Part shown: in pieces, positions 2,682 to 25,802 of the stretch | Numbering within the stretch: position 1 is the stretch's first letter | How the letters are laid out: each line of letters opens with the position of its first letter | DNA from: a virus | Lineage: Duplodnaviria; Caudoviricetes | Virus record (IMG/VR): IMGVR_UViG_3300017828_000080 | Coordinates: 1-51,314 of that record | Direction: 5' to 3' (one strand) | DNA length: 51,314 nt | Program-made: the position numbers and the translations under genes | The notes under the pieces: generated by a model | The model's database searches: none | What the model saw: only the letters and a program-made list of their open reading frames with translations | What the model was told of the DNA's origin: nothing

Positions 2682-3356
2682 TTATCCTTCTGTGCCATTG
2701 CCCTCACTTTCTTCATCAGTCCTTTCTATGAGAGTTACTTCTGTAGTAATTTCCTTCGGTTCTTCAGAAACTATGTAAATTCCATTATATTCAACATAGT
2801 CTCCTTGTGGAGTAAAGAAGAAAATTGCATCTCCATTGCTTCCATAACTTCCATCCATCTGAGGACTCTCAACAACTTTAAAGTTTACACCTTCTCCGCC
2901 ACCTGCTGAATCGCCGTGTCCCGTGTTAAACTTCGCGTTTGGAATCTCTACAATTTGCTTGTCATTTGTAAGTTTACTATTGACACTACTAACCTTTCCT
3001 TGTGCTATCTCATAATTGACAACCTTCCCGTCATGTGAAAGCATATAAACATGGTGTTTATTGCTCCTGTCATTGAGGTACTTGTAGCGTTCAATGAGAT
3101 TCTGCCTTTCGAGTGAATCATCCATTTCAAACGGTGGCCGTTCTTGGATTAGAGCCTGTTGGTTTGTTTCAGTTAGACCTATTTCAAACCAATAACTCTC
3201 ACCAACAGAATCAACATCAATGTTGGTATTAGTCTGATTCGACAACTCTTCAGCGCCGTCAGAAGGATTGTTACCATCATTTCCAATTGTTCCACAACCT
3301 GCAAGTGCCATAAGTATCCCAACTGCTAGGATACCAAGTATTTTCTTGTTTACCAT
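2682..3356 (-). CDS. Lipoprotein of unknown function
   Basis: Signal peptide with LAGC lipobox; conserved-looking C-terminal DGSYGSNGDAIFFFT...YVEYNG. Confidence 0.75.
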   Translation of the reverse strand: MVNKKILGILAVGILMALAGCGTIGNDGNNPSDGAEELSNQTNTNIDVDSVGESYWFEIGLTETNQQALIQERPPFEMDDSLERQNLIERYKYLNDRSNKHHVYMLSHDGKVVNYEIAQGKVSSVNSKLTNDKQIVEIPNAKFNTGHGDSAGGGEGVNFKVVESPQMDGSYGSNGDAIFFFTPQGDYVEYNGIYIVSEEPKEITTEVTLIERTDEESEGNGTEG

Positions 3357-3394
3357 AACTGCAAGAGAAAATAAAACGCGGGAGTATTTATTAC

Positions 3395-3973
3395 TTATGA
3401 TGAAACCTTATCGGGAAGTCCATCACACTGTTCTGCATCAACAGGTTGCCCATCAACAGGTTCTCCATTTGGTCCAGTATCAATTGGTTGTTCAGCATCA
3501 CCACTTCCCGGTGGTCCACTGATTCCGAAAGACTCATCGACCTTATATGGTAAATGACATTTAAAAACTTCTCTATTTGCCATATCACTCTGGGCATTAT
3601 ATTCGGCTACTAATCTTTCAAGTTGATTCTGACTTCCCGTAATTCTTTGTTGTATCCGATTGTGTCTTTCTTCAGCAGTTCGTGACCATTCATCAGGGTT
3701 TTCTCCATGTGTATCATAAAACCTCTCTAGAGCATCATAGTTGTTTTCTACCTGCGCTCTTTCAGCTTCAATATCATGATACATTTCACGAAAATCTTCA
3801 TACTGCGACACTGCGTTTTCTGCATCATACGTATTTCTCGTAATTTCTTCACCAGCTTCCCTTTGTTCAAACCAAGGCATAAATGCAGGATAGAAAATAT
3901 AGGAAAAGATATTCAAAAGAATAATGAAAGCTAAAACAATTCCAACATACTTCCATAGGTCATTTTCATTCAT
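3395..3973 (-). CDS. Membrane-anchored coiled-coil protein
   Basis: N-terminal TM helix, helical region ending LVAEYNAQSDMANR. Confidence 0.7.
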   Translation of the reverse strand: MNENDLWKYVGIVLAFIILLNIFSYIFYPAFMPWFEQREAGEEITRNTYDAENAVSQYEDFREMYHDIEAERAQVENNYDALERFYDTHGENPDEWSRTAEERHNRIQQRITGSQNQLERLVAEYNAQSDMANREVFKCHLPYKVDESFGISGPPGSGDAEQPIDTGPNGEPVDGQPVDAEQCDGLPDKVSS

Positions 3974-4161: not shown

Positions 4162-4197
4162 AGGAGAATAAGATAGACGGATAAAAAAACTTTACGA

Positions 4198-4536
4198 TTA
4201 GTCGTCGTAAATCAAACTACGTACTGCATCTGCTCCCAAATCTAAAGCTGTAGAATCCTTTATAGCTCTGTCATCAATCAGTAAGTCATATCCCGGTTTT
4301 TCCATGACTAAACCATGATACATGACGCCCCATTTTTTCAAAAAGTACTTTGTCTCTTTTCTTACTTCTTCACGTCTTGCAGTATATATTATTATTGTAT
4401 GATTCTGTTTATACAAGTCGTTGACCAAACCTATCATTTCTTCTCTTGGCTCTTCATCTAAATTATCGACCCACCAAGGCTCACCAGCCCCAGTTGTTAG
4501 TGTAGAATCAAAGTCAACGAAGATTGTAGCTCCCAT
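4198..4536 (-). CDS. Small capless HAD-superfamily phosphatase
   Basis: Motif I DFDSTL, motif II YTAR, motif III KP, motif IV IDD. Confidence 0.8.
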   Translation of the reverse strand: MGATIFVDFDSTLTTGAGEPWWVDNLDEEPREEMIGLVNDLYKQNHTIIIYTARREEVRKETKYFLKKWGVMYHGLVMEKPGYDLLIDDRAIKDSTALDLGADAVRSLIYDD

Positions 4537-4537
4537 A

Positions 4538-4657
4538 TTAGTTCTCTATTTTATCCTTTACTTCTTGATATTCTTTTCCACAGTACTCACTCATACAGTA
4601 CTCACTTCTTTTTGGCTCTCCATATTCCATCTCACAAGCAGGACACATATACATCAT
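4538..4657 (-). CDS. CPxC zinc-finger microprotein (39 aa, not in ORF track)
   Basis: MMYMCPACEMEYGEPKRSEYCMSEYCGKEYQEVKDKIEN; ATGA overlap with the spoVR stop; ends 1 nt before the HAD gene start. Confidence 0.6.
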   Translation of the reverse strand: MMYMCPACEMEYGEPKRSEYCMSEYCGKEYQEVKDKIEN

Positions 4658-6522
4658 GCTCTCCACTCTTCGGGGATTGTATTATAATCAATTTCGTCTG
4701 CCTCAACCGCCTCTCTTAACTTATCATCTCTTACTTGATGTTCTTTGAATTCATCTTTCCCCGGTGGTACATTTCCATTATACTCTATTCTCACCATTTC
4801 TTCTTCTGGCTCAGGTTCTACATCTTCTTCATACGATAAATTCAATTCTTCTTCACTCACAATTTTTCCAACTGTAACAAGATGAACTGGCCGTCCCCAA
4901 AGTTCAAAGAGTCTTTCCATAACACCTTTGAGTTTCTTCACATCGAGGACTATTCCATTGTACTTATGAATCAAAAGAAGTTCTCCAGAATTCCCATAAT
5001 TCCCCGATGCTACTTCAATTGTAGGCTTTCCGAAGTTTGTGAACTGAAGAAGCAACTTCTTTTTCACATCTTCAACATCTCGACTAGAGATTTCATACTG
5101 TTCATGAGGAACACTATATTCGTAGGTGAAGTAATTTTCTTCATTTACGAATTCTTGGGTAAGGAATTCATCAATAAAGACAACATCGTTATGAGTTTCA
5201 CGAACCTGCTTCATTCTCTCCCATCCGAGTGTATAATCAACATCTTCTAATGATTCCGAGACTGTTTGGTACTTACTCCGATTTACGATGTATCTATTAA
5301 TTTTTCTCAATTCATCAAGGTCAATATTCTTTATAAATCCTTTATTATGTATCCTTGCGAGAGAGTAGTTTCTTTTCACAATATCCTCTGAATTGGAATG
5401 TGTCAAAGTTTCATGAACGTCGTCAAAATCAACTTCTCTGTGGAAATTATCAGGATTTATACCTTCAACCCGAAGCAGCTTATGGACTACCTCTCTTCGA
5501 TTCACAGTATTTTCAACATACTCCCATAGCATTTTACCGAGTCGATATGGATTAAACTGCGAAGATTGTATTACTCTTGAGTGCTGGTCTGCATAGTCGA
5601 TGATTTCATCAACATCAGCAAATTCTTCATCAGTCATTACCATACTTTCGTGATAAGAAGCCCATCCTTCATTAATTGTTTTTGTTAGCTTTTGCGGGGC
5701 AAAATAATAGGCTTCTTCACGCAACATATCCAATATATCTAGCTGCCAATCTTCATAATCGACAGCCGTTTCTCTATTTTCATCAAACTGCTTGCCATTG
5801 GAAATTAAGTATCCTAGAATATCTTTTGTGGTGTTATCAGTTACATGAACACTCCGTTCTTCGTCACCGTCTTCTTCATCAAAAACTTCATCGACAATAT
5901 CACTCGAAATATCCAAATTTTCAATAGAACGGTCTTTCTCTTCAGAAGAGTTAGAAGAAATATCGACACTTTGACGAAATACATATTCTGAATATTGGTC
6001 AATGTTATCTTCTAGGCACAGAACATGGTCAATCCATTTTTCAACTTCACCCCTATCAATATTGGGGTCTTCCATGTAATTCTGGATTTTCTGTGCGTGT
6101 CTCGCAAGCATATCTGAAGCATTAGGCGAATCAGAAAACCATTTATTATTCGCAAAGAAATCCGAGTGAGCCTCAACGTGGGCTATTACTGCTTTTTGGT
6201 CAACCAAATCATTACTCATTTGAAGATAAGCATGGCAGGGGTCATCATTGATGACCATTTCAAATATCTTACCACCGCCGTACTCACCTTTCTTCTGTTG
6301 CTTATCATACTTCATTCCCCATCTCCAGTGAGGATAACGCTCTTGAAAACCACCGTATGCAGCAAGTTGATTTACTTCATCGTTATGATTTATCCAATAT
6401 CGGACATCTCGCGGTTTCAATCCAAGTTCCTCTACTTTTGCTTGAATCGAATCAAGATGCTCTTCTAGCTCCTTAGCAACTTCTTCTTTTTGATGTTCTC
6501 TTTCTCTAATCATTTTTATCAC
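4654..6522 (-). CDS. spoVR: SpoVR/YcgB family protein
   Basis: RYPHWRWG, KIFEMVINDDPC, AHVEAHSDFFANN, YYFAPQKLTKTINEGWASYH, NPYRLG, ELLLIH, LWGRPV signatures. Confidence 0.92.
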   Translation of the reverse strand: MIKMIREREHQKEEVAKELEEHLDSIQAKVEELGLKPRDVRYWINHNDEVNQLAAYGGFQERYPHWRWGMKYDKQQKKGEYGGGKIFEMVINDDPCHAYLQMSNDLVDQKAVIAHVEAHSDFFANNKWFSDSPNASDMLARHAQKIQNYMEDPNIDRGEVEKWIDHVLCLEDNIDQYSEYVFRQSVDISSNSSEEKDRSIENLDISSDIVDEVFDEEDGDEERSVHVTDNTTKDILGYLISNGKQFDENRETAVDYEDWQLDILDMLREEAYYFAPQKLTKTINEGWASYHESMVMTDEEFADVDEIIDYADQHSRVIQSSQFNPYRLGKMLWEYVENTVNRREVVHKLLRVEGINPDNFHREVDFDDVHETLTHSNSEDIVKRNYSLARIHNKGFIKNIDLDELRKINRYIVNRSKYQTVSESLEDVDYTLGWERMKQVRETHNDVVFIDEFLTQEFVNEENYFTYEYSVPHEQYEISSRDVEDVKKKLLLQFTNFGKPTIEVASGNYGNSGELLLIHKYNGIVLDVKKLKGVMERLFELWGRPVHLVTVGKIVSEEELNLSYEEDVEPEPEEEMVRIEYNGNVPPGKDEFKEHQVRDDKLREAVEADEIDYNTIPEEWRA

Positions 6523-7821
6523 TCATTCTTCTCCATCAGTTGAAAGCATTTCATAGATGCAGTCCATTATGTCTTTTTCACCTTTAAGATTAAACGTTGC
6601 GATATTGTCTCTGTCACCGATGTTATCTTCAACTACATCTAAATGACTAGGGTTATTTGAAGAATAAGTCAACTTTCCTCTACTGTCATCAGGATTAACT
6701 TCTATATATCCGTGCAAATTAGCATTTATATCCTCCATTAATGGAACTACATTTTCTTCCGAGTCGTCCCAAATATTTTCTCCGTCACCAGAACATAGCA
6801 CATAACGATTCCATTCCTTCCACGGATACCTATTCTCTAGAATTTCCTGAGCAAGTTCATAACCACTGGAAATTCTAGTTCCACCTCCTGATTTCATTCC
6901 AAAGAAGTTAATTCTCTGAACTTCTTGAGCTTCAGCATCATGAGCAATGTAAACGAATTCAGCATTGTCATACTTACCCGTCAAGTACCAGTCTATAGGA
7001 GTGAAGACGCGCTCAACAAGTCTTCTTTTCTCTTTACCCATTGAACCGGAAACATCTCTGATGAAGACCACCACTGCATTTTTTTCATATTCTGTGGTGG
7101 TTTTGGGATACTTATGTCGTTTATCTTCTTCGCGGAGGGCTACTGAATCAATTTCCTTTGCTGCTGGAGAACGACGCATTTCTTTTGATATATCATCAAT
7201 CGAAATATACTTTTGACGGTCTTCTATATCCAGATATTCCTGCTCAATCCAGCCCTTTGATACTGGGATATTATTTTCTCTTGCCCATTGAAAAGTAGTC
7301 TCTTCATTCATTCCCTCAACTTTCATAACTTCTCTCAAATAATCTTCATCGAAGAACATAGAAAGGCTTCTCTTAAGACCTTTCTTGAACATCCGCTCGA
7401 AATCCAGAGTACTTTCCGGTCCAGAACGAGCTAACTGTGTATAAGGCCCTTCCTTTTCTTCCTTCACCTTTTTGCCTTTTGGGTCAAGGTCAAGGCCAAG
7501 TTCATCATCAAGCTCCTGAGCAAACTCTTCAGGGTCCATTTCATAATGTCCATGTTCCGAAGTCTCTTCACCTGCCTCTTCGCCCTCTTCTCCCGGCTTT
7601 TTTTCTGGTTCACCAATTCCTTCACCAATCTCACCTTCACCTTTTCCAACTCCACCCATATCACTTTTATCGTACTCAAAGGCAGGTAGATTAATGACCT
7701 TTACTGGGATGTTAATATCATCTCCAGCTTCAATTTGACCGTGCTGTATAAATTCAGTCAAATCTTGCCTTCTCTCTTCTCCAACTTCTTCAAACCTCTT
7801 TAAATCTTCTTTAAGTCCCAT
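6523..7821 (-). CDS. yeaH: YeaH/YhbH (DUF444) family vWA-domain protein
   Basis: G-rich linker, MIDAS-like DVSGSM, YIAHD, SGGGTRISSGY, YPWKEWNRY, GDGEN; lies between prkA and spoVR. Confidence 0.9.
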   Translation of the reverse strand: MGLKEDLKRFEEVGEERRQDLTEFIQHGQIEAGDDINIPVKVINLPAFEYDKSDMGGVGKGEGEIGEGIGEPEKKPGEEGEEAGEETSEHGHYEMDPEEFAQELDDELGLDLDPKGKKVKEEKEGPYTQLARSGPESTLDFERMFKKGLKRSLSMFFDEDYLREVMKVEGMNEETTFQWARENNIPVSKGWIEQEYLDIEDRQKYISIDDISKEMRRSPAAKEIDSVALREEDKRHKYPKTTTEYEKNAVVVFIRDVSGSMGKEKRRLVERVFTPIDWYLTGKYDNAEFVYIAHDAEAQEVQRINFFGMKSGGGTRISSGYELAQEILENRYPWKEWNRYVLCSGDGENIWDDSEENVVPLMEDINANLHGYIEVNPDDSRGKLTYSSNNPSHLDVVEDNIGDRDNIATFNLKGEKDIMDCIYEMLSTDGEE

Positions 7822-7822
7822 A

Positions 7823-9964
7823 TTACTTATCCTCTTCAGATTCAAACATATCCATTTGACCAGTCGGAACTACTTTGTTACTCACTTCTTCTGCCGATTC
7901 TTGGGAATAACCTTGTTCTTTCATTCTTTTTATTGTTTTTTGCTTTAACTTGTTTACCTCTGTATCCGAAGGCGGAGATTCCCAGAGACGTAAATCAGCA
8001 TCAGGAAAAACCCTTTCAACCATATCCCAGTCATTTTCATCGAGAAGTGTCTTTAGAGGTGGGCACTCAGAAAGAGGAACATCATCAATAGTAAAGTCTT
8101 CTTCCCTCTTGTCCCACATATATTTATTAATCGGTGAAAGAATTCCCTCTCGAAATTCGACTATTTCTTTCTCCGCTTTTGCCTTTTTACCGTAATTTGA
8201 AATATCTTGACCGAGATACCTTGTTTCAAATTCTCTCAACTCGTAAGCATCATATTCATCATCTCGGTCATCATCCCAAGCTAGGATTGAATCAATGTAA
8301 TTTCTTACATCTTCTTCAGTAACGGTTATATCTCCGACCATTGCCTGTAGTACATCTTCTTGCTGCTTTGAATATATATAATTTTCAGTATAGGCACAAG
8401 CACCGTTAAATTCTTCTAACTCTTTACCATCGAACATTGGTTCATCTTCAAAACCATCTCTCATAGCACGAGTAACGTGTGTCGGTAAAACAAAGTCATT
8501 CTCTTGGACTTTTTCAACTATTTTATCTACGGTATATGTTACTGGTATTCCCGAATCTCCATCTATAATTGATGAGTGAATTATACTCTCTGAAGTATTA
8601 ATCATTTTTCCAACGGGAAAATCTTCGCCTGTTTCCAAATATTCTATTAAAGCAATAGAATCTTCCCCGCTACAGTCAACACGGGTACTCACCTCATACA
8701 TAGCAGCCGCTTCGATTGTCCTTGGAGCTATTTCTGTATCATAAATCCTCTCTTCTTCTGAAACCTTTTCCATCCTATCTTCGTCTTCCCATAGGTAATT
8801 TTCATCAAAAAGAATTCTCTTGATAAGCATACCCTCAATTCCAACAGTAGTAAGGTATCCGAATTCATACTTATCAAGTCTCCGGCGAACTGCTCTCATA
8901 GGGTCACTTTGACCACTACTACTATATTCTCTCAGTCTCTCTTCCAAATCTCTATTTGAGAATATCATTATGAGAGTATCTAAATCCATAGAAATTTTGT
9001 TATTTAGTTTGACCATCTCTTCTTCGCAGACATTCAACATTTTAGCTAAAACATCAAAATGATGCGCTCCATCTTCCACGATACTCACAAGGCCATTGCC
9101 TTGTGAAAGAACACCATCATATGAGAAAGCCTGTGGATTCATATGACCACGTTTAGCGAATTTTTGCATAGCTCCTTCCATCCAAGAACCAACGATTTTC
9201 TGCTTTGGATTTCCGTTATCTTCCGAATGGAGAACGCCAATTCCGTCGCCCACTTCTGGATATACTCTTTTTACACGAACAAAGCCTTCGGAAACTATTT
9301 CTTGAAAGTCCATATCTTCCTCCAAACTCTCAAGAACTTCCTTGCTGAATGGTCCTAGTTTGCAGTCCAATTCAAAATCTGAACGAACATAGTTCATATA
9401 ATTTTCTCTTGTCTTAGGTGGGAGGATAGTCAAAGGATTGACATTGATTGGACTTTTATAATATCTCTTCTCAATGGATGCTTTTTCACCATAAGACATT
9501 CGACTGTTAGAAGACGAATCATCTAGAGTCCATTCCAATGTATATCTTGCCCCTTCATCTGTCTCTGAATAAGCGCGAATGCCATTGATTATACAACGCT
9601 TTAATTCAGACTTTCCAGAAGCAGTGGGGCCTACGAACCAAATAATCTTATTATTATCACCTTCTTCTGAAGCGCGACGACGTACTTCATCTACAAATTC
9701 ATTCAACTCTCTTGTATTGCCAAGGATGGCGTTTTCACCGTTACAATAAGGGTCATCGAAGAATCTGTATCTTTCTATTTCTTCACCATTCTCAATAACT
9801 TCCCGTGTACCGTAATGTTCGATAGCACAAAGAAGATAATTTACAGAATCGGCTATAGAAATGGGGTTATCTTCAGCAAAATCCAGAAATTCGTCTAACT
9901 GCATAACATCTTCTTCTCTATGCCCTCGCTCTTCTGATGATTTCTGGATTATTGATTCTTCCAT
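7823..9964 (-). CDS. prkA: PrkA/YeaG family AAA+ protein, second paralog
   Basis: RYRFFDDP, Walker A GPTASGKS, PQAFSYDGVLSQGNG, AVRRRL. Confidence 0.88.
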   Translation of the reverse strand: MEESIIQKSSEERGHREEDVMQLDEFLDFAEDNPISIADSVNYLLCAIEHYGTREVIENGEEIERYRFFDDPYCNGENAILGNTRELNEFVDEVRRRASEEGDNNKIIWFVGPTASGKSELKRCIINGIRAYSETDEGARYTLEWTLDDSSSNSRMSYGEKASIEKRYYKSPINVNPLTILPPKTRENYMNYVRSDFELDCKLGPFSKEVLESLEEDMDFQEIVSEGFVRVKRVYPEVGDGIGVLHSEDNGNPKQKIVGSWMEGAMQKFAKRGHMNPQAFSYDGVLSQGNGLVSIVEDGAHHFDVLAKMLNVCEEEMVKLNNKISMDLDTLIMIFSNRDLEERLREYSSSGQSDPMRAVRRRLDKYEFGYLTTVGIEGMLIKRILFDENYLWEDEDRMEKVSEEERIYDTEIAPRTIEAAAMYEVSTRVDCSGEDSIALIEYLETGEDFPVGKMINTSESIIHSSIIDGDSGIPVTYTVDKIVEKVQENDFVLPTHVTRAMRDGFEDEPMFDGKELEEFNGACAYTENYIYSKQQEDVLQAMVGDITVTEEDVRNYIDSILAWDDDRDDEYDAYELREFETRYLGQDISNYGKKAKAEKEIVEFREGILSPINKYMWDKREEDFTIDDVPLSECPPLKTLLDENDWDMVERVFPDADLRLWESPPSDTEVNKLKQKTIKRMKEQGYSQESAEEVSNKVVPTGQMDMFESEEDK

Positions 9965-9968
9965 AATT

Positions 9969-10259
9969 TTATTCTGTCTTTTTCAGTGACTCTTGGGTAA
10001 AATTAGAGTCATTTTCACTTTCTAGGAACCTTTGAGGTAGCTTTTCCCATTCAAGAGAAAAGTCACTACGGTCTTCATAACGTCTAACTCCCCTTTTCGG
10101 TTCTACTTTTAAACACATCTTCCTCTTATTTACCACATTTATACGTGTAATCAGACACTCACTCCCATCCCAGACTATTGTATCTCCCTGTTCAGGCATT
10201 TCATCAAACATCCCGTCTACTCTTGAGGAGTTGAGAACAATTTTTTGTGGAACAGACAT
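9969..10259 (-). CDS. Hypothetical protein between the two prkA paralogs
   Basis: 96-aa ORF tightly packed with 2-4 nt gaps. Confidence 0.65.
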   Translation of the reverse strand: MSVPQKIVLNSSRVDGMFDEMPEQGDTIVWDGSECLITRINVVNKRKMCLKVEPKRGVRRYEDRSDFSLEWEKLPQRFLESENDSNFTQESLKKTE

Positions 10260-10261
10260 AT

Positions 10262-12322
10262 TTAATCCATTTCCTCCTTGGCAACCTTAGCGCCTGCATA
10301 TTCAAGCACTTCTTCTGCCCCTTCTTCAGAATAACCTCTATCCTTCAGAGCAGAAATCCAAGCATCACGATTTTCGTCAGAATCGTCTGACTTAATCAGT
10401 GCGGAGAAGTTAATATTATGCTTCTTTTCACTCCAAAGTTTTCGTTCAAGAGCGCGGAGTAGGCGTTCATTATCAGTCGGTGAGAACGATTCTCCCTTCC
10501 GTGCTTTCCGACTGACCCAATTCGTAATTTCCTGCCGGAAGTCTTCTTTTCGGTCACGGGGAATATCAAGTTCTTCTTCAACAGACCTCATGAACTGTTC
10601 ATCTGGCTCAACCATATCACCTGTTATCTCGTCTTCAACCTTGTCGTCATCGATATAGGCCATCACATTATCCATGTACTTTTCACCCTGCTCTTCAATT
10701 TCATCAGTATTATAAGCTAGAGCGTGACGAACGTCTTCAACAGCCCGTTCTTCAAACTCTTCTTTTGCATCTTCAATATAAACCTCATATTCTGAAAGGT
10801 TTTCTTCTGGGATTGAACCATGATTTTCAATATTACTCTTGAGATGTTTGAAAACAGTAAGAGTCGAAAGTGAGTAAGAGTCGTCGTGCAATTGAGCAAC
10901 AATAGACTCTGCAATTTCATCTCCAATGAAACGAGCAGAAACGCCATGAAGTCCTTCTTCTTCGGATTCTTCACGAAGCTTCTCTACATCAATATCCCCC
11001 ACATCACTTTCTTCACCATTGTAAGCTTTGGCTTTCTGAAGAAGAGTGATGTTTTGCGCACTTGGTTCATCCAGTCGCGTCATCACACCGAAAAGAGCAG
11101 CCATTTCGAGAGTATGAGGTTCAACATGAACTTCCCCGACTGAAGAGTTGGAAAGCATCTTCTCATAAATCTGCGCTTCCTCAGAATACTCAAGCACGTA
11201 AGGGAAGTCTATTCTCTTGGTCCGGTCGTTGAACGCTTCCATCTTCTCATTACCTGTTTTCTCTCGATACTCCGGCATATTTGTACGACCGACAATCACT
11301 TGGTCAATATCGATTCGTGGATTGTTTTTTGGCTTGATTGTCTGCTCTTGAGTGGCGTGGAGGAAATCATAGAGGAATTCTTTCTGCAACTTAAGCAGTT
11401 CTTCACCAGAGAAAATACCTCGATTAGCATTACAAAATGCTCCAGAATAATCAAACGCACGTGGGTCAGATTCTCCATAAACAGCAATCTTTGAATAGTT
11501 GACATCGCCAGTCAGTTCAGTCTCGTCTTGATTCTTCTTATCTTTTGGCTCAAAAGTTTCAACTGCTTCACGACGGTTTTCACTAGCAACAAACCGAATT
11601 ACTTCAATGTGATTTTCGAGAACGGCGCTTAGATTATCATTATAATGCTCAAGAAGTTCATCCATAAAGAATTCACTTCGTGGGTCAAGTGTCTGATTAT
11701 TTTCTATATAGTAATCAGCATCAATCTCCCCATTGACTTCATCAAAAAGTTCTTCTCTATGACTCTGGGGAAGTAGTACCACAGGGTCTTGATTCATTGC
11801 AGAACGGACAGTATCATCTGAAGGGTCTTGGTCATCAATAACTTCACAAAGATTTGTCCATCGGAAACTATACATCCGACCCTCTTCACGGGTAGTGTAG
11901 TCTTCAAAGTAATTCCTAACTTGTCTGTCGAAATCCGACTTGCCAGAACCTACAGGACCAAGGAGAAGCTTAATCCGCTTTTCGGGGCCAAGACCACGGG
12001 AAGCAGAGTGAACCTTATTCACGAACTGATGGATAGCTTGATGGACATCCCGACCATAGAAAACATTATCGCCTCCGCCAAGTGGGTCTTCAGAAGCCAT
12101 CTTGTATTCAACAACCCCACGTTCTTCGTCATATTCTGTCCCGTAAAAACGGAACATATCTGAAAGTCTCTGGTGAGCATTTCGAGCTATACGAGGATTA
12201 TCTGCAAGTTCTTCAAGATACCAGTTGAAAGAGTGTGAAGTTCTCAAGTCATCTGGAATCTCTTCACGATGCGTTTCATTAACTCGGTCCAAGTTCGTAA
12301 GCGCGGAGAGACTGTCTTTCAT
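10262..12322 (-). CDS. prkA: PrkA/YeaG family AAA+ ATPase / Ser kinase, first paralog
   Basis: ARNAHQR, LLLGPVGSGKS, FEPKDKKNQDETELTG, ESDPRAFDYSGAFCNANRG, EAFNDRT, IDFPY, EPHTLE. Confidence 0.93.
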   Translation of the reverse strand: MKDSLSALTNLDRVNETHREEIPDDLRTSHSFNWYLEELADNPRIARNAHQRLSDMFRFYGTEYDEERGVVEYKMASEDPLGGGDNVFYGRDVHQAIHQFVNKVHSASRGLGPEKRIKLLLGPVGSGKSDFDRQVRNYFEDYTTREEGRMYSFRWTNLCEVIDDQDPSDDTVRSAMNQDPVVLLPQSHREELFDEVNGEIDADYYIENNQTLDPRSEFFMDELLEHYNDNLSAVLENHIEVIRFVASENRREAVETFEPKDKKNQDETELTGDVNYSKIAVYGESDPRAFDYSGAFCNANRGIFSGEELLKLQKEFLYDFLHATQEQTIKPKNNPRIDIDQVIVGRTNMPEYREKTGNEKMEAFNDRTKRIDFPYVLEYSEEAQIYEKMLSNSSVGEVHVEPHTLEMAALFGVMTRLDEPSAQNITLLQKAKAYNGEESDVGDIDVEKLREESEEEGLHGVSARFIGDEIAESIVAQLHDDSYSLSTLTVFKHLKSNIENHGSIPEENLSEYEVYIEDAKEEFEERAVEDVRHALAYNTDEIEEQGEKYMDNVMAYIDDDKVEDEITGDMVEPDEQFMRSVEEELDIPRDRKEDFRQEITNWVSRKARKGESFSPTDNERLLRALERKLWSEKKHNINFSALIKSDDSDENRDAWISALKDRGYSEEGAEEVLEYAGAKVAKEEMD

Positions 12323-12350
12323 ACTACAATAAAGGATTAGAGATGCAATG

Positions 12351-12364
12351 TAAAAAGGGTTTCG
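12351..12364 (-). promoter_or_regulatory. Promoter of the prkA operon (BRE + TATA, leaderless)
   Basis: CGAAACCCTTTTTA about 28 nt upstream of ATG 12322. Confidence 0.7.
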
Positions 12365-12565: not shown

Positions 12566-14212
12566 TTAGTAATCAAAAACTGTTTTCTCACTTATTTCGG
12601 AATATTCTTCTGCTTCTGTCAGCCATTGAGGAAGTGTAGTTTTCTTCTTCAACTTTTCGTAGTCTTCATCAAGAATGTAAAAATTACTCGTATCATTTTT
12701 ACTCCGGTTTGTTCGACCGTAAGCCTGTGCAACTCTGATTGCTGCCCTATCAAAATAAGAAGGCCAGCCATATGTCGTTTCTTCAAGGAGATATTCTGTC
12801 CAACTATTTATTTGTGGATAAGGGACTTTAAGCAGAACATTGTAAACTCCTTTATCTCCATCCAAATCAATTCCTTCCATCATCGAAGGGCTAAGAATCA
12901 TGTCTTTTGAACTTCTTTGCCAGTCTTCTACAGCATCTTCAGCATCTTCTTTTCTTGTGTGAGTGTAAACATTATCTTCTAAGAAGTCATATCCATCTTC
13001 TCGATTGGCAGTTTCTTCTATCTTCGCTGCTCTATCATAACTAGCAGTATGACAAATCCCTTTTGAACCAGAATGCTTTTCCGCTATTTTATTCAAATTC
13101 TCCATTATACTCGACCAATTACTATCACAACCTCCATTGCTCAAACTATCAACCATATGTTTTTTCACTACTGGCCGATTTTCTGGAGGAAAAGTCATAC
13201 TAACACTGATAACCTTTGTTTCTTCAGGGTCAAGTCCGGCTTTCCTAAGCCAAATATCAGGATTGTTTCGGTGTCTCATTGTTGCAGTTGATATTATTCT
13301 TTTACCTGCCCTAGACCACAAAAAGTTGTTAAGAAAACTACTGACATTTATCGGGAAAAGGTCTACTGTTTTGATATAATCACCTTTGTATTTCTTACCA
13401 TCAACATCAACCACCCAAGGTCTATCATTCTGGACATCCCGATTTGCCCGTTTTATATTTTGAGTTAATCTATAACAACGTTTTTCAGCATCCGTCATTT
13501 GAGGGAGAGAAATATCACGAATGAAATCATCACAACGATTGAGCAAATCAACAAGTTCCCCTTTAACATCTTCATACATTGTCGCATCATAAGATATAGA
13601 AGAAGTTGCGTTTTTAAATACATGGCTAGGGATTCCGTGAGGTGTAATGTTAAACCCCGCGTGCATTTCTCTGGTTTGCTCAATCAAATTATGAGCTTCA
13701 TCAACTACTAACATATCTCTGTCGTCAAAAGAAATCTGCATTCCACCAGAACCATAAGTAGGTATCAGACCATCAATAATCATCATAGAAAAGGTTATAA
13801 CAGATATATCAGAACCCATAACTACTTGCTTGCGTCTCCAATAATTACAAGAAGGACCTACCTGTTCAGCACATGACTGTTCTTCTGAATTATAGACAGG
13901 ACATTCTTTACAGTTATCGTTCCCAACACTACAGTAATAATCTTTTCTTGCTTTTAAATCTTCAACGTGAGGTTGTAGTTTTTCATCACTTTGAATTTGT
14001 TGTCGGAGACTTTTCATTGGGGTCGTGTACCAGCCATTGTCGGCATATCTCAATAAAGCAACACAAATTCCAGATTTACCAGTACCAACAGGACCATCTA
14101 AAATTATATTTTTATACCCGGAGTCAAGTGCATCAAGACAAGCTGCAACTGTCTCGTACTGCTTTTCTCGGAATTCTTCAAATGGGAACAGTTCGGACTC
14201 TCTTGATTCCAT
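12566..14212 (-). CDS. DinG/XPD-family SF2 helicase with Fe-S cysteines
   Basis: Q-motif REKQ, GPVGTGKS, Cys cluster (YYC, CKEC, SC, CNY), DEAH, STAT, EGIDL, KVPYP, QAYGRTNRS; start 14212 fits the promoter. Confidence 0.88.
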   Translation of the reverse strand: MESRESELFPFEEFREKQYETVAACLDALDSGYKNIILDGPVGTGKSGICVALLRYADNGWYTTPMKSLRQQIQSDEKLQPHVEDLKARKDYYCSVGNDNCKECPVYNSEEQSCAEQVGPSCNYWRRKQVVMGSDISVITFSMMIIDGLIPTYGSGGMQISFDDRDMLVVDEAHNLIEQTREMHAGFNITPHGIPSHVFKNATSSISYDATMYEDVKGELVDLLNRCDDFIRDISLPQMTDAEKRCYRLTQNIKRANRDVQNDRPWVVDVDGKKYKGDYIKTVDLFPINVSSFLNNFLWSRAGKRIISTATMRHRNNPDIWLRKAGLDPEETKVISVSMTFPPENRPVVKKHMVDSLSNGGCDSNWSSIMENLNKIAEKHSGSKGICHTASYDRAAKIEETANREDGYDFLEDNVYTHTRKEDAEDAVEDWQRSSKDMILSPSMMEGIDLDGDKGVYNVLLKVPYPQINSWTEYLLEETTYGWPSYFDRAAIRVAQAYGRTNRSKNDTSNFYILDEDYEKLKKKTTLPQWLTEAEEYSEISEKTVFDY

Positions 14213-14255
14213 ACAACAATATTTAGACAAGGAGGGATAAAACAGTTACGTTCCG

Positions 14256-14864
14256 CTAATCAAATATTCCGTTGATGTGTGTTTTCGCTATTTGAAAAAC
14301 TTCATCACTATTTTTTTCGCCATCAATTGTAACAACATTCGGTTTCTCAGAAGCTAAGTAATCATAGATTCTTTTAGCTTCTACCAAGCTTTCTTTGTCT
14401 TCGTATTTTTCCTTTGTGTCTATTCTTTCGAGTGCAGTATCAACATCAACTGACAAGTACAAATACAAGTCTGGTTCAATTGTAAAATGATAAGACATTT
14501 CCTGTATATATTGAATCGGGTCAATAATACCCAATTCTTCGTCCAAGACCTTTGTTTGATACGCGAAAGTAGATAAAGCGTATCTATCACATATTACATT
14601 TCGCCCACTTTGGAGGGTGGGTTTTATACTTTCAGTACAGTGTTGGTAACGGTCAGCAAGAAAAGCAAAAAAGTCAGCAGGAGATGGTTCATCTTCAACA
14701 CGTAGTCTATCTCTAATAGAGTGTCCATAAAAGAAACTAGAAGGTTCTTGCGTAAACAGTGATTCAGAAAATTCATTTTCTTTTCTCAATTTTTCGATGA
14801 GTGTTCCTTTTCCACTTCCATCTATTCCCTCAACACATACAAAAGTACCATCGTATTCATTCAT
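14256..14864 (-). CDS. tmk: Thymidylate kinase
   Basis: EGIDGSGKGT, QEP, ADRYQH, CDRYALSTFAYQ, PDL. Confidence 0.93.
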   Translation of the reverse strand: MNEYDGTFVCVEGIDGSGKGTLIEKLRKENEFSESLFTQEPSSFFYGHSIRDRLRVEDEPSPADFFAFLADRYQHCTESIKPTLQSGRNVICDRYALSTFAYQTKVLDEELGIIDPIQYIQEMSYHFTIEPDLYLYLSVDVDTALERIDTKEKYEDKESLVEAKRIYDYLASEKPNVVTIDGEKNSDEVFQIAKTHINGIFD

Positions 14865-15348
14865 ATTTTTTTAGCATCTCCATAACTTCATCTCTATCAC
14901 TATGAACTACTTCAGCGTGTTCAAACATCCACCCCGACTCTTTTTGTTCATCAATTGTCCACAAAAAGAAAGGTATACCCTTCATGTATGCATACATAGA
15001 TTCCATACAACTTCCTCTAGCTACAACATCAGGAAGGCCGACAAACACAAATTCACACTGTTGGATAGCTAGTTTATCACTCATTACGTATTCAGAGGGT
15101 AAAATTTGTTCTTTTTCTGAATTGTTTGAAAAATCCGATGGGTCATTCAGAACTTCTTGGTCTTCTGGGTCGTATCTATCTAAAGGATTGACAAAATTGA
15201 ATTCATTAGAGTATTCCTCAATCAAATTATTTCTCCATCCACGGCCATCATCTTCAACTTTCCTGATAGGCCCGCAAAGATAAATAGAATTTTTTTCTTT
15301 TTCAATTAACTCTTCAGGCACTTTCTGCTTTTGCATTTGTACGCTCAT
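14857..15348 (-). CDS. Nucleoside 2-deoxyribosyltransferase / nucleotide N-hydrolase family protein
   Basis: IYLCGPI...WR...NPLD...D..I...GSCMESMYA pattern. Confidence 0.75.
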   Translation of the reverse strand: MSVQMQKQKVPEELIEKEKNSIYLCGPIRKVEDDGRGWRNNLIEEYSNEFNFVNPLDRYDPEDQEVLNDPSDFSNNSEKEQILPSEYVMSDKLAIQQCEFVFVGLPDVVARGSCMESMYAYMKGIPFFLWTIDEQKESGWMFEHAEVVHSDRDEVMEMLKKYE

Positions 15349-15734
15349 ATTATATCTGTAATAGTTTCTCCTTTATTAGACTTTTCTTTTTTAACTCGAT
15401 ACTGCCCCCCTTCCGTTTTATGCATAGACTCTTCATTGAAAAAGTACCAACTACTTTCATAATCAAAACGAACAGCAATGTAATATTCAGCACCAAAAGC
15501 ATCAGAAAACACTTTTAATTCTTCCAACTCTTCAGAATCCAAATATAAGTAGTCTCCGCCACATCTTTTAACTTCAAAACAATAAATATCTCCATGCTTA
15601 CCAACAATAACATCAGGAAGCTCTCTTTGAGTACATCCACCCGACGTGGGGGCGCGAAGTCCTACAAAACCTTCATCATAAAAAAGAGAAAGAAGTTCTC
15701 TCTCACCAGATGCGCCTTTATTATAATTACTCAT
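15345..15734 (-). CDS. hjc: Archaeal Holliday junction resolvase
   Basis: KGASGERE, RAPTSGG, PDVIVG, FEVK, AVRF. Confidence 0.92.
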   Translation of the reverse strand: MSNYNKGASGERELLSLFYDEGFVGLRAPTSGGCTQRELPDVIVGKHGDIYCFEVKRCGGDYLYLDSEELEELKVFSDAFGAEYYIAVRFDYESSWYFFNEESMHKTEGGQYRVKKEKSNKGETITDII

Positions 15735-15954
15735 GTTCTATTTTATGTGTAAAATCGCAAACCGGGCAATAAAGTTCTTTTGAAGATTTATCTTTAAGCA
15801 ATTCGCTTTTACAATTATAACAGACGCCCCTTTCTTCAATTTCTTTACTCATTGCTCGCTTCACATCTTTTCTCTGAGCTTTTCTGTATTCTGTTATAAT
15901 TTTTAATGTTGAAGAATTTTTTATCTCTTGTAAGACTATAGGGTTAACTTTCAT
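15727..15954 (-). CDS. Zn-ribbon protein
   Basis: CYNC...YCPVC. Confidence 0.65.
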   Translation of the reverse strand: MKVNPIVLQEIKNSSTLKIITEYRKAQRKDVKRAMSKEIEERGVCYNCKSELLKDKSSKELYCPVCDFTHKIEHE

Positions 15955-16507
15955 AATCTTCCTCTATGCGGCTTTTAGTCACCCCTTCTTGGCCCTGATA
16001 TTTATTATCTTCATCATTATAAGGGGAATTAGAAGGTTCCTTTAATTCATGGAAAGTCATTTGTGCAATTCTCATTCCCGGCTTCAACTTGACAGGTCGG
16101 CTTCCCACATTACTAATTTCGAGAACCCCATCTGGAGCATTAAATCCGGGGTCAAACAGTCCAGCAGTTTGATGAACATTTATACCAAGGCGGGCCACTG
16201 AAGAACGCCCCGTCAATTTGCCAAGAATATAATCTGGTATGTCAAAAGATTCTTTTGTATTAGCTATGTAAAAGTCACCCGGATAAACAATTATTTCGCT
16301 ATTGTCTGGGACTGTTTCATCAAACATATTTTCGATTCCTTCTTCTACATCAATAATCCCATCTTCCGGGTTAAATTGGGAAAAGCCATTTCCAAGACGT
16401 ATATCTAAACTTGCTGGTTGCAGTTGCTCTTCCAAATCGACTGGTTCTATTTCCAATTCTCCATACGCCAACTCTTCAGCTATTTGATAATCAGGTAATA
16501 GACTCAT
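15944..16507 (-). CDS. dcd: dCTP deaminase
   Basis: QPASLDIRLG, GRSSVARLG, AGLFDPGF, LEISN, RIAQ, KYQGQ. Confidence 0.93.
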   Translation of the reverse strand: MSLLPDYQIAEELAYGELEIEPVDLEEQLQPASLDIRLGNGFSQFNPEDGIIDVEEGIENMFDETVPDNSEIIVYPGDFYIANTKESFDIPDYILGKLTGRSSVARLGINVHQTAGLFDPGFNAPDGVLEISNVGSRPVKLKPGMRIAQMTFHELKEPSNSPYNDEDNKYQGQEGVTKSRIEEDYES

Positions 16508-16566
16508 AGACTTTACTTATTCCAAGTAGGACCTTCACAATTAAAAGCGTTACGAATACACCAAGT

Positions 16567-16773
16567 TTAATCAACGAGACTTTTAGGAATTCCAAATGAC
16601 TCAATTTCATTTATCGAATCGACAACTTCTACTGTTTGCCATTTTCCCATATCCGAACTATACTCTGAAATTTCTATTGTTTTTTTATCAGTCGTTTTTA
16701 CAATTAACAATGAACGTTTTATCCCCTCCGTCGATTCCCACTCTAAAATCTGAGTAACTTCTTTATCACTCAT
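16567..16773 (-). CDS. Hypothetical protein
   Basis: 68-aa ORF coupled to the upstream gene. Confidence 0.55.
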   Translation of the reverse strand: MSDKEVTQILEWESTEGIKRSLLIVKTTDKKTIEISEYSSDMGKWQTVEVVDSINEIESFGIPKSLVD

Positions 16774-17431
16774 CTTCAGAATACTGTGACATAATATCTA
16801 ACCTTGGCGAAACATTCCAAGCGTTACTTTTAGCAAACTTCTCACAATATTTATAACGGTCAGAAACAGTTTTCATTTTCCAGCCTTTAGGAAAGAGCCA
16901 TACATCTGAATCATACATAGTGTATTCTCTGGAAACGTCTTCGATATACCCGTCGTCTGTTGAACTATCTACCTTGAATATAAAGTCTACATTGCCGTAA
17001 TTATTTGCTTGTTCAGTATAAAAGTCCATGACTCTCTCATCAAAGTCATAATCTTCGGGAACAAAAACACGATAATAGTCAGCAATGTTCTGTACTTCAC
17101 GCGGCGGAACAGTATTAAACTCCTGCAAACCAACCTCAAAATCAACAAACCGTGCATCAAGAAGTCGAGAGAATTCAGATATTCCTTCTAAATGAATATC
17201 CTTAAATACATTCTGACCACTAAACTGTAAACGAGCAAAACCAGAGTTTACTTTTCTATCCCATTTGTACCTCTCAAACAATCCTTCAATAGACCTTACT
17301 TCCATCTGATTATCATCGGCCTCAGAAACAGTGAAGTCAACAACAGGAGTACCTGCATGGGAACCATGTGGAAAAGGACCGTAATCTGTTGAAGTTTGAT
17401 TCATCCCCAGAGTGACGTTTGTTATAGACAT
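16766..17431 (-). CDS. Degenerate QueE/NrdG-like radical-SAM-fold protein lacking CxxxCxxC
   Basis: GSHAGTPVV, FSGQNVF, DFIFKV, VWLFPKG, WNVSPRL occur in the order of QueE motifs; no cysteine triad. Confidence 0.6.
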   Translation of the reverse strand: MSITNVTLGMNQTSTDYGPFPHGSHAGTPVVDFTVSEADDNQMEVRSIEGLFERYKWDRKVNSGFARLQFSGQNVFKDIHLEGISEFSRLLDARFVDFEVGLQEFNTVPPREVQNIADYYRVFVPEDYDFDERVMDFYTEQANNYGNVDFIFKVDSSTDDGYIEDVSREYTMYDSDVWLFPKGWKMKTVSDRYKYCEKFAKSNAWNVSPRLDIMSQYSEDE

Positions 17432-17489
17432 TGTTTTTATATTTCCGCACATTAAATTTAATACTCATGTATTTAAATACCTTTCGATA

Positions 17490-18254
17490 TTAATACTCAA
17501 ATATACCTTCATCTGCAAATATTTGTTTTGTCTCACTTTCAATTCTTTTTAAACTCATATCCACATATTCTTCATCTAAATCAATACCAATCCAATTTCT
17601 ATCAAGTTTTTCTGCTACAACTGCTGTCGTTCCACTCCCTATAAACGGGTCAAGAACAACATCATTTTCATATGAATTTAATTGAATTAGTCTTTTTGGA
17701 ATTTCTTCTGGGAAAGGAGCAGGATGTGAAGAAGAAGTTTCTGGAGAAAGATTCCAAACAGACTTAACATACTTCATAAATTTTTCTTTAGGTATGGTCT
17801 TTTCACTCTTCTTTTTTTCTTTTCCTACATCAAAAATTAGAATGTACTCATGATTAAAAATAGGACGTGGACTGCTAGGACTGCGCCAAGAACCCCAAGC
17901 TGAAGATGATTCGCTACTTCCTTTATCCCAAATAATTTCAAACCTCTGTGTCCAGTTAAGGTCTTGGGATAATGTTTTGATTACTTTCGGCATATCAACA
18001 ATTCCTCCATCATTTTTTAAAGAAATATTAACACAAACTCTCCCTACGTCTTTGAGTTTACTGTCTAGAAGTTCAAATAAAGAAGACATCATAGACTTAT
18101 ATTCTTCTTGGGAAATACTATCATTATATTTTCCATAATCTACACCGACATTGTATGGAGGTGAAGTAACAACTAAATCTATGGAGTTATCATCAAAATT
18201 TGATATAACATCCAGACAATCTCCACAATGAATATCATTTATCCATTCTTCCAT
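17490..18254 (-). CDS. Beta-class N4-C/N6-A DNA methyltransferase
   Basis: TSPPYN (motif IV) precedes HPAPFP and LDPFIGSGTT (motif I). Confidence 0.92.
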   Translation of the reverse strand: MEEWINDIHCGDCLDVISNFDDNSIDLVVTSPPYNVGVDYGKYNDSISQEEYKSMMSSLFELLDSKLKDVGRVCVNISLKNDGGIVDMPKVIKTLSQDLNWTQRFEIIWDKGSSESSSAWGSWRSPSSPRPIFNHEYILIFDVGKEKKKSEKTIPKEKFMKYVKSVWNLSPETSSSHPAPFPEEIPKRLIQLNSYENDVVLDPFIGSGTTAVVAEKLDRNWIGIDLDEEYVDMSLKRIESETKQIFADEGIFEY

Positions 18255-18256
18255 AA

Positions 18257-19546
18257 TTAGTAAGAAAAGATTCCTTTTTCAGAATCACTATCATCTTTTT
18301 CTCCATCTTCAGTAGATTTCGATATAAACTCAGAAATCTTAGTCGATTCAGTATCATTAGTATCAGTCTCCTTCTCGACTTCCTGCATTTGCCAATCTTC
18401 ATATTCCGATTTTGAAAGACCAATCACATCAATTAATTCTTGGGGTATTCCATTAGATAGAATTAATTCTCTTTTTTCCTCTTCACTCATAGACTTGATA
18501 AGTGGAAGTACAATCTTTCTGAATTCCCTAAAACCAAACCCCCCAGAAAAAGAATATTCATCTTTCAGTGAACGATAAAAACGTGCTTCTCTATTCTCTG
18601 AACTTGCAGATGGTGTATAGTTTCTCCTTTCAGAAGGATAATCAACATTCACCCAATCATTGTAAGGTTCAGTTAGACGTAAATTTGAAACCTCTTCTGC
18701 AATATCACCTGCATACCTCCACCACGAATAATTCTGCGTTTTTTGAGTGTGTCTTAACCATTTATCAGCTTCAGAAAGTGCTTGATAAGAACGCATAGAT
18801 TCAACTCCATCCATTTCATTTTTTACGTTTTCATTGAGAAAAGATACCATATCATCAGGAGTCATATCACCCAAATAGTCTTTGTTAAGAATTACCCGTC
18901 TCGTTACAGCAAAAGGTGAATCATCAGTCTCTCGCCCATCCCATTCAGTATCTTTTTCTTGAATGGAATATGCTTGTAAATCATTTAACGCATCTCGAAT
19001 TCCATTTCGAGTAGCAAGCTGTCCTATTTGTCTACTTGATATATCTATATCTTCTTCCTTAACAATATCCTTGAGATACTTCTTTATTGAATTACTTTTT
19101 AGTTTGAATTTATAATTTTTACATATATTTTCCAATCCGTCTGGAACTTTCCAAAGTTCATTCGCAGTACAAATAACAGGATTAGGAGAATTTTTCAGAA
19201 TAGGATATAAAGTTGATATAGAACGTCCGTCAATTGAGTCAACTTCATCAAAAACGTAAAGTGTTAGTGTGTTGTTTCGGGACCGAATTTCTTGAGCAAT
19301 ATACTCTATATCTTCAGTCTTTCTACTGGAAGAAGCATTAGTTTCAACATATTCCCAATCAAATTCATTTGATACGACTTCAGCCGTACTTGTTTTACCA
19401 GTACCAGCAGGTCCATGTAAAAGAAGCGGAGAATCGCCTTTAGACCAATTTTCTGCCCATTCTTTGATTTTAGAAATTGCTTTCGGATGACCATAGATGT
19501 CATCAAAACTCTCGGGTCGATGCTTTTGAGCAAGACTCTCTCCCAT
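18257..19546 (-). CDS. rfcL: Replication factor C large subunit
   Basis: KHRP, GPAGTGKT, NASSSR, DEVD, RDALNDLQ, C-terminal LSEAD...YSWWRYA, acidic tail ending in PIP-like GIFSY. Confidence 0.85.
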   Translation of the reverse strand: MGESLAQKHRPESFDDIYGHPKAISKIKEWAENWSKGDSPLLLHGPAGTGKTSTAEVVSNEFDWEYVETNASSSRKTEDIEYIAQEIRSRNNTLTLYVFDEVDSIDGRSISTLYPILKNSPNPVICTANELWKVPDGLENICKNYKFKLKSNSIKKYLKDIVKEEDIDISSRQIGQLATRNGIRDALNDLQAYSIQEKDTEWDGRETDDSPFAVTRRVILNKDYLGDMTPDDMVSFLNENVKNEMDGVESMRSYQALSEADKWLRHTQKTQNYSWWRYAGDIAEEVSNLRLTEPYNDWVNVDYPSERRNYTPSASSENREARFYRSLKDEYSFSGGFGFREFRKIVLPLIKSMSEEEKRELILSNGIPQELIDVIGLSKSEYEDWQMQEVEKETDTNDTESTKISEFISKSTEDGEKDDSDSEKGIFSY

Positions 19547-19551
19547 AAATA

Positions 19552-22393: not shown

Positions 22394-22396
22394 TGT

Positions 22397-22600: not shown

Positions 22601-22626
22601 AATAAGAAAAAAAGGACTTTTTACTT

Positions 22627-22887: not shown

Positions 22888-22893
22888 AGATGT

Positions 22894-23285: not shown

Positions 23286-23287
23286 AA

Positions 23288-25439: not shown

Positions 25440-25484
25440 TACACCCTAACTAACACTGTGACGCTTAAAAGAGTTATGAAATCA

Positions 25485-25559: not shown

Positions 25560-25564
25560 AGATG

Positions 25565-25780: not shown

Positions 25781-25802
25781 ATTACTTCTTTAGACGGGGA
25801 TG

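Follow-up and report, generated by a model that had tools for sequence, protein, structure and literature searches.

The PrkA-PrkA-YeaH-SpoVR module, a candidate machine for protein turnover, on a tailed virus that most likely infects halophilic archaea

We describe a group of four adjacent genes, prkA1, prkA2, yeaH and spoVR, in the IMG/VR virus record IMGVR_UViG_3300017828_000080, whose entire length of 51,314 bases is the window analyzed here. This group is a viral form of a known four-gene module, of which we found no description in an archaeal virus in the literature that we searched. The four genes are an old and strongly conserved possession of the virus lineage and are under strong purifying selection. 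As to their function, we tentatively favor, at a little short of an even chance, an ATP-driven machine that would unfold and break down host proteins and so feed virus production in starved cells. The genes and associated features, in order from the promoter, are the following (lengths in amino acids, aa; ORF, open reading frame; BRE, B recognition element):

12353..12364, minus strand: BRE/TATA-like promoter site found by a pattern scan, suggesting a leaderless or short-leader transcript
10262..12322, minus strand: prkA1, AAA+ ATPase, 686 aa, Walker A at 122-129 (PF08298 and PF06798; homolog of PDB 9xip)
9969..10259, minus strand: orf96, 96 aa, no family in profile searches, likely a passenger insertion
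7823..9964, minus strand: prkA2, divergent AAA+ paralog, 713 aa, Walker A at 112-119 (Pfam; motifs)
6523..7821, minus strand: yeaH (YeaH/YhbH, DUF444), vWA-MIDAS protein, 432 aa (PF04285), residues 45-72 being a predicted SpoVR tether
4654..6513, minus strand: spoVR (SpoVR/YcgB), 619 aa, predicted zincin fold (PF04293 and SpoVR_C; AlphaFold2 model; conservation)
4538..4657, minus strand: CxxC microprotein, 39 aa, likely outside the module
4198..4536, minus strand: HAD, small stand-alone phosphatase, 112 aa (phrog_1238), likely outside the module
4185..4196, minus strand: T-run after the HAD stop codon, which may serve as a terminator and coincides with the BRE/TATA-like site of the following gene

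The genes matching PF08298 plus PF06798, PF04285 and PF04293 are adjacent and full length, with two PrkA paralogs, separated here by orf96, followed by DUF444 and SpoVR as in the haloarchaeal cluster. The AAA_PrkA and PrkA profiles of Pfam gave E-values of 2e-65 and 2e-64, and of 8e-16 and 3e-18, in the two PrkAs respectively, while DUF444 gave 7e-93 and SpoVR 7e-77, the latter accompanied by SpoVR_C. The starts of yeaH (7821), spoVR (6513) and the CxxC ORF (4657) were refined from relatives, the yeaH ATG being common to them, and the successive junctions from prkA1 onward measure 2, 4, 1 and 0 or 9 bases, followed by a 4-base overlap and 1 base. A first-pass annotation of this DNA had described a tight run from prkA1 through orf96, prkA2, yeaH, spoVR and the CxxC ORF to HAD, with four full-length core genes, intact motifs and the two-PrkA layout of haloarchaea. 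This description is confirmed throughout: all genes lie on the minus strand with junctions of at most 9 bases, Pfam and motif checks agree, and the families and their order are those of the host cluster.

The same annotation had taken the module to be virus-encoded, and the content of the window bears this out. Profile searches identified a terminase, a portal, an HK97-type major head protein, a tail tube and family B DNA polymerase (PolB), which places it in Caudoviricetes, and also two clamp-loader subunits, RadA, Hjc and two tRNAs. GC content ranges from 32 to 46% in 2-kb windows. The large terminase subunit (TerL) finds its best match among phage records in Halogranum tailed virus 1 (HGTV-1), at 35%, and the window proteins that were checked are acidic, with 19-23% Asp plus Glu. 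The window belongs to a tailed virus whose host is most likely a halophilic archaeon. A relative (G001) is a complete record of 106,233 bases bounded by direct terminal repeats. It has the operon as well, and its TerL shows 83% identity. No relative was shown to lack the operon, the contigs without PrkA (G002-G004, L095, L097) being fragments. No integrase family was found among the 59 window ORFs and 69 further G001 ORFs scanned, all of at least 85 aa, and a PolB search of viral contigs gave no match.

The position of the module points in the same direction. In two further IMG/VR loci and in five of 80 metagenome loci (L006-L009 and L011), prkA1 lies downstream of the same viral helicase gene; these seven loci have a GC of 35-43%, L008 and L009 look near-identical, and the remaining 75 metagenome loci lack the helicase. 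GC at third codon positions (GC3) is 0.29-0.35 in the operon genes and 0.25-0.29 in viral neighbors, as against host medians of 0.82-0.88. Compared with the relative L001, nonsynonymous divergence (dN) is 0.078 for PrkA1, 0.28 for PrkA2, 0.18 for YeaH and 0.17 for SpoVR, alongside 0.24 for the helicase, 0.34 for thymidylate kinase and 0.19 for dCTP deaminase among the viral neighbors, all three of which have changed more than PrkA1. Synonymous divergence (dS) of PrkA1 reaches 2.45, and the dN/dS ratios, where finite, are 0.03 and about 0.09 (the latter for PrkA2), figures that are rough because synonymous sites are at or near saturation. Low dN with near-saturated synonymous sites indicates purifying selection, and the relaxed selection that the first-pass annotation had considered was not seen.

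Phylogenetic analysis against host copies likewise sets the viral genes apart. In a 24-row maximum-likelihood tree the seven viral PrkA1 proteins form a clade (support 100/99), sister to L037 (99/98) and outside the 12 named Halobacteria sampled, with the cautions that a common low GC may attract rows to each other and that only two branches, both long, place the root. A second tree covered the first 70 of 120 listed matches; in it, a branch with a Shimodaira-Hasegawa-like approximate likelihood ratio (SH-aLRT) of 100 separates the 32 best PrkA1 matches (72-100% identity, on contigs of up to 107 kb, none from a named cell) from the others. In the YeaH tree, for which 115 of 119 other matches were aligned, 66 of 118 haloarchaeal-type rows fall outside a branch of support 98 that holds every named cell. 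Of the rows taken here as viral, only the two IMG/VR loci and L006-L009 and L011 are shown to be so by their neighbors, the others being presumed viral. No close cellular donor was found among 301 Halobacteriota genomes, in which the best PrkA2 stretches reach up to 50%. The sister row L037 (L037:1-13283) is a contig of 40% GC bearing cellular haloarchaeal genes together with the four-gene cluster, and may represent a donor or a low-GC host lineage. Another contig, of 54% GC (L018:1-22043), has a four-gene cluster that branches deeply and adjoins DnaK, PadR and dCTP deaminase; this contig could be a plasmid, a virus or a deep haloarchaeon.

Turning to the proteins themselves, PrkA1 is about 70% identical to PrkA of Halobacteria. 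Both PrkAs retain Walker A, the acidic Walker B pair, the sensor 1 Asn and the Arg finger, as do the host copies, the naming of these AAA+ motifs being our own assignment, and PrkA2 keeps 171 of 219 host-invariant columns. These motifs suggest that PrkA1 and PrkA2 are both active AAA+ ATPases, and they probably form one mixed ring. A pattern search found none of the Hanks-kinase motifs (GxGxxG, the DxKxxN catalytic loop, DFG) in either protein. In Zhang et al. (PMC9512850), PrkA of Bacillus subtilis is reported to have ATPase activity and a slow, ATP-dependent digestion of casein sensitive to phenylmethylsulfonyl fluoride (PMSF), with no kinase activity. Thus, the kinase activity that the first-pass annotation had entertained is not borne out. 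A PrkA homolog of 692 aa has been solved (PDB 9xip, 9xiq and 9xir), for which our literature search found no paper, and the 30 chains in these three entries hint at ten-subunit assemblies. An AlphaFold2 model of PrkA1 built from a 32-row alignment reached a predicted local distance difference test (pLDDT) of 47, and a fold search with it returned noise.

SpoVR yielded a model with a pLDDT of 92 and a predicted template modeling score (pTM) of 0.90. While Foldseek gave no match at E <= 0.001, full structural alignment (VIA) against 48,161 chains returned zinc metallopeptidases in 42 of the 50 best rows, drawn from M1, M3, M4, M30, M32, M36, M61, angiotensin-converting enzyme (ACE) and others, labels that rest on the titles or on our own assignment. 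The top rows had Z-scores of 12.0 (root-mean-square deviation 3.5, 191 residues aligned) and 11.2 (4.0, 194), and the best M1 peptidase 10.8 (4.0, 174); the remaining eight rows comprise four uncharacterized proteins including DUF885, two TAF2 and two YbeY. Conservation was assessed in an alignment of 101 diverse SpoVRs, i.e. 98 of 150 representatives chosen by length and three viral copies, in which E85 and H112 are conserved in 100 rows each, Y323 in 99, and H116 and E282 in 98 each. E282 stands at the start of a predicted helix (278-295), with 166 residues separating it from the second His. The motifs are retained in all five viral copies that are long enough and in 74 of 75 host copies, L001 showing one His-for-Trp change. 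SpoVR is hence predicted to be shaped like a zinc metallopeptidase, with a putative His-His-Glu metal site formed by H112, H116 and E282. The invariant E85 may stand in for the absent Glu of the HExxH motif, or SpoVR may be a dead receptor; because this Glu is replaced by Val (HVxxH), we do not file SpoVR as a member of the gluzincins (clan MA).

Links between SpoVR and the zincins were also sought at the sequence level. A PDB sequence search gave nothing significant, Pfam run over 70 SpoVR members gave M61 in two and DUF885 in one at non-significant E-values of 0.01-0.02, hhalign against two DUF885 proteins gave a probability of 0.3%, although the EGW motifs were paired, and the ESM Atlas returned nothing outside SpoVR's own family. 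No account of SpoVR as a zincin was found in the literature, most subscription papers lying outside the search. Haloarchaeal host SpoVRs often contain an intein of about 400 aa after the NEGWA motif, and in the three that we examined (L034, L048, L073) it sits right behind the motif; inteins favor critical motifs. Split or long SpoVRs also occur in L038, L051, L137, L140, L154, L185 and L190. In L002 (L002:15485-17230) SpoVR runs into unrelated sequence after about residue 570, which may be a misassembly.

YeaH displays the motifs DVSGSM (256), GGTRIS (313) and SGDGEN (344), and its MIDAS residues D256/S258/S260, T315 and D346 are invariant in 119 rows; the protein scores 596 bits with NF003713, against a cut-off of 467. 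Neither SpoVR nor YeaH has a solved relative by sequence search. A SpoVR-YeaH complex model scored 0.69, as compared with 0.12 for the best of three controls; 116 of 157 solved pairs attain this mark, as do 2 of 215 mismatched ones, a calibration that is rough here (own alignments, an unscored Zn rider). The runs had at least 65% of contacts in common, with a partner pLDDT of at least 63. In the model the conserved Gly-rich segment 45-72 of YeaH runs alongside residues 459-478 and 520-534 of SpoVR and contacts 317-321 beside the conserved NPY motif. We accordingly predict from the model that YeaH binds SpoVR via residues 45-72.

The closest functional information comes from Escherichia coli, in which YeaG is needed for a bulk, largely nonspecific proteolysis that supplies amino acids and ATP in carbon starvation (Manzanarez et al., PNAS 2026, PMC13684143). 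Loss of YeaG lowers survival in carbon and nitrogen starvation (PMC13684143, PMC4664914), cofitness links yeaG, yeaH and ycgB in six bacteria, a pattern that Price et al. (10.1101/072470) read as signaling, and in a wild population of Haloquadratum prkA2 ranks within the 25 genes of highest expression (PMC9684190). Among phage records, the same 17 carry both PrkA and YeaH. The first-pass proposal of an AAA+/vWA machine tied to starvation is supported, and the viral module may control host dormancy.

The mechanism that we propose starts from the observed four intact genes under purifying selection in the virus lineage. By their motifs, PrkA1 and PrkA2 would be functional AAA+ ATPases that probably assemble into a single mixed ring. 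The 45-72 segment of YeaH is predicted to clamp SpoVR, leaving the vWA/MIDAS domain to grip the substrate or the ring. SpoVR, in its predicted zinc-metallopeptidase fold with ligands H112, H116 and E282, and with E85 possibly replacing the missing Glu, would do the cutting. By extension from E. coli, the outcome would be a low-specificity turnover of cytoplasmic proteins. The virus, by expressing the module with its replication genes, would escape dependence on the host's starvation switch, and in nutrient-poor brine it would gain by switching the machine on itself. A fuller and bolder version, which is appreciably more doubtful, would make PrkA-YeaH-SpoVR an unrecognized class of ATP-dependent protease, in which an AAA+ ring feeds a vWA-tethered zincin, SpoVR, that uses the remote E85; this would be the enzyme behind starvation proteolysis, kept by an old archaeal-virus lineage to break down the host's proteins and build virions from them.

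Several observations weigh against a proteolytic machine. All the functional evidence is transferred by analogy from one-PrkA bacterial systems, and non-selective proteolysis would destroy virus proteins too. The E. coli study (PMC13684143) deleted yeaG only and offers no enzyme mechanism; its main text names no yeaH, ycgB, phage or archaea, and in the six supplementary files searched, of the seven that the supporting information lists, yeaH and ycgB appear only as rows of an RpoS-regulon table. AAA+ and kinase-domain mutants of E. coli YeaG are both reported to fail to complement (Figueira et al., PMC4664914). The casein digestion by B. subtilis PrkA took place in the absence of partners and was slow and PMSF-sensitive (PMC9512850), which points to a serine mechanism or a contaminant and away from SpoVR. 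As for SpoVR, position 113, where HExxH has its Glu, is Val in 84 of 101 sequences and possibly Glu in at most two; the fold list includes TAF2, which is catalytically dead, as well as a nuclease, YbeY; and Z-scores below about 13, by the tool's own warning, can be common for helical proteins.

In a different reading, on balance rather unlikely, the module is a targeted remodeler that does not cut: a chaperone resembling the MoxR/vWA pairs, with SpoVR as a dead metal-binding substrate receptor, that acts on specific host or virion complexes or passes unfolded proteins to the host proteasome. The absent HExxH Glu and the dead TAF2 among the fold matches favor it, as do the complete MIDAS motif of YeaH and the placement of the module's counterpart in the Thermus phage Lalka8 between head genes and TerL. 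However, five potentially catalytic polar residues of SpoVR are nearly invariant, the YeaG phenotype is broad and not targeted (PMC13684143), and an AAA plus vWA-like pair distinct from the module occurs in the complete relative G001. The machine could also, with the same chemistry, keep a starved infected host alive in a carrier state or stalled infection until lysis pays. The lowered starvation survival on loss of YeaG and the high expression of the host module in a wild population (PMC9684190) speak for such life support, which we nonetheless consider quite unlikely: no integrase family is present in the ORFs scanned in the window and G001, the operon has the promoter type and strand of the replication genes, and hosts already own the module (34 of 301 Halobacteriota genomes; prkA1 and prkA2 in 80 of 80 loci).

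The first-pass annotation had coupled the HAD phosphatase to the module and suggested that it made the system reversible, PrkA phosphorylating host targets and HAD undoing this. YeaG has been reported as a kinase in the literature, and HAD follows the CxxC ORF after a single base within the run and is near spoVR in two relatives. Against this, the PrkAs are devoid of Hanks motifs, B. subtilis PrkA showed no kinase activity, and HAD does not behave as a fixed partner. Of the three relatives reaching at least 3 kb past spoVR, the CxxC ORF (50-56% identical) and HAD occur in L001 and L002, set off from spoVR by other ORFs, and L007 has neither within 3 kb. The 80 GTDB host loci hold prkA1 in 80, prkA2 in 80, yeaH in 77 and spoVR in 75, with HAD, the CxxC ORF and orf96 in none. 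HAD, in which HAD_PNKP scored E 5e-5, below that profile's cut-off, matches 210 phage records, at least 193 of them without PrkA; in the halovirus HRTV-25, which is not among the 17 PrkA records, it occurs among Zn-finger microproteins. HAD is a generic phage gene, and both it and the CxxC ORF likely lie outside the module; the coupling is not supported, and we rejected the reversible switch, to which we would assign very little probability. We give equally little credence to a decoy, in which viral subunits would mix into the machine of the host and obstruct or divert it, thereby keeping the host from degrading virus proteins or going dormant. Mixed rings are plausible given the roughly 70% identity between viral and host PrkA1, but all four genes and their catalytic motifs are kept, and one damaged subunit would suffice in place of 8 kb. 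Misassembly or neutral capture of a recent host fragment has a next to negligible chance. The contig is metagenomic, and two related contigs look misassembled (the spoVR end of L002, and L097, where at L097:10001-15486 a cut helicase is followed by an inverted block), yet the operon occupies the same place after the helicase in seven other loci, including one complete genome with terminal repeats, its GC3 is virus-like, low dN accompanies near-saturated synonymous sites, and the viral clade is well supported (100/99). A host-DNA chimera was rejected on the recurrence of the locus in independent assemblies and one complete genome and on GC3, and pseudogenes were also rejected.

The final base of the BRE/TATA-like site lies 30 bases ahead of the prkA1 ATG. 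The pattern has seven matches in the window against 1.86 expected, a count reached in none of 100 shuffles, a significance that is inflated because the pattern was fitted to sites already seen; there is no match within 4197-12352. Left-arm genes other than prkA1 are preceded by the same type of site, and similar T-rich boxes were seen by eye before prkA1 in six related viral loci. Of the first-pass claim that one promoter drives the run, the site ahead of prkA1 stands, while a single transcript from there through HAD is putative, and a looser scan found a weak second site at 4696, ahead of the CxxC ORF. orf96 has no family and no match in any related locus, and its ESM Atlas matches are below 0.9; it is likely a passenger insertion. 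Directly after the operon (2682-3973) are two membrane- or lipoprotein-like ORFs of 224 and 192 aa without a match in related loci. An archaeal-type set of replication genes that is close to complete spans 12566-32436 (PolB, two RFC subunits, RadA, Hjc and a helicase), and further ORFs there, without a named family, may be primase and PCNA. Between the tail tube gene and the contig end (44387-51163) there is no tape-measure gene; it probably lies beyond the contig end because G001 has one further along (L206:7113-11210). In G001 a second AAA_5 ATPase also adjoins a chelatase/vWA-like gene (L210:15695-18836), and RtcB, a class I ribonucleotide reductase and ThyX are encoded elsewhere.

The PrkA-YeaH-SpoVR module occurs widely, and whether it is a kinase, a protease or something else has been a matter of dispute for decades. 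The 2026 YeaG paper names no cutting enzyme, for which SpoVR, by its predicted fold, its conserved residues and the predicted YeaH tether, is a directly testable candidate. That bacterial and archaeal viruses have captured the module repeatedly and separately suggests a recurring need, in viruses of starved cells, to control host protein turnover; if true, harvesting amino acids from the host proteome would be a seldom-considered auxiliary function of viruses.

Among known systems the nearest is the prkA1-prkA2-DUF444-spoVR signature cluster of haloarchaea (Anderson et al. 2011, PMC3102087), with which the viral module shares the four families, their order and the motifs, at about 70, 41, 54 and 47% identity to host copies. 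It differs in residing on a virus, in its low GC3, in its clade outside the 12 named Halobacteria in the tree, in a SpoVR without the insertion of about 50 aa present in most host copies, and in the small ORFs between its genes. The YeaG (SpdA)-YeaH-YcgB system of E. coli and PrkA-YhbH-SpoVR of B. subtilis comprise the same three families and are the source of the functional data, but are cellular and have one PrkA, and the viral PrkA and SpoVR fall below NCBIfam equivalog cut-offs. PrkA occurs in 17 of 50,697 phage records, none of them a named archaeal virus, and SpoVR is annotated or matched beside PrkA/YeaH in phiYS40 (YS40_056/057/059), MN1, Lalka8, RsoM2USA (ORF28-30) and the huge phage LR756511. 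Like the window, the phages in question (Thermus phiYS40, MN1 and Lalka8, Ralstonia RsoM2USA, Enterobacter LAU1 and LR756511) carry PrkA, a vWA protein and SpoVR together on a virus, but with bacterial hosts and a single PrkA; because identity to the window proteins is only 26-37%, we regard these trios as separate captures. An unrelated IMG/VR phage contig with yeaH-spoVR-prkA (L103:14988-19411) is a further separate capture. We found annotation only and no functional study of a phage-borne trio in the literature; the RsoM2USA paper lists the trio genes without study (PMC8504454), and PMC4605624 and 10.64898/2026.07.20.739708 contributed nothing on viruses. The first-pass suggestion of novelty stands to the extent that no published description in an archaeal virus was found, with most subscription papers outside the search, and is lowered because the one-PrkA trio is already annotated in phages of Thermus, Ralstonia and Enterobacter. 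At the level of individual proteins, the SpoVR model resembles the gluzincins (M1, M3, M4, M32, M61) and DUF885 in fold and in having two His four apart with a downstream Glu, but has HVxxH in place of HExxH, 166 residues from His to Glu and no significant sequence or profile link to them. MoxR chaperone pairs consist of an AAA+ ATPase next to a MIDAS vWA protein. The module recalls them in its own AAA+ ATPase adjoining a MIDAS vWA protein, whereas it is distinguished by the C-terminal domain peculiar to PrkA, by the presence of two paralogs and by a third partner with a peptidase-like fold.

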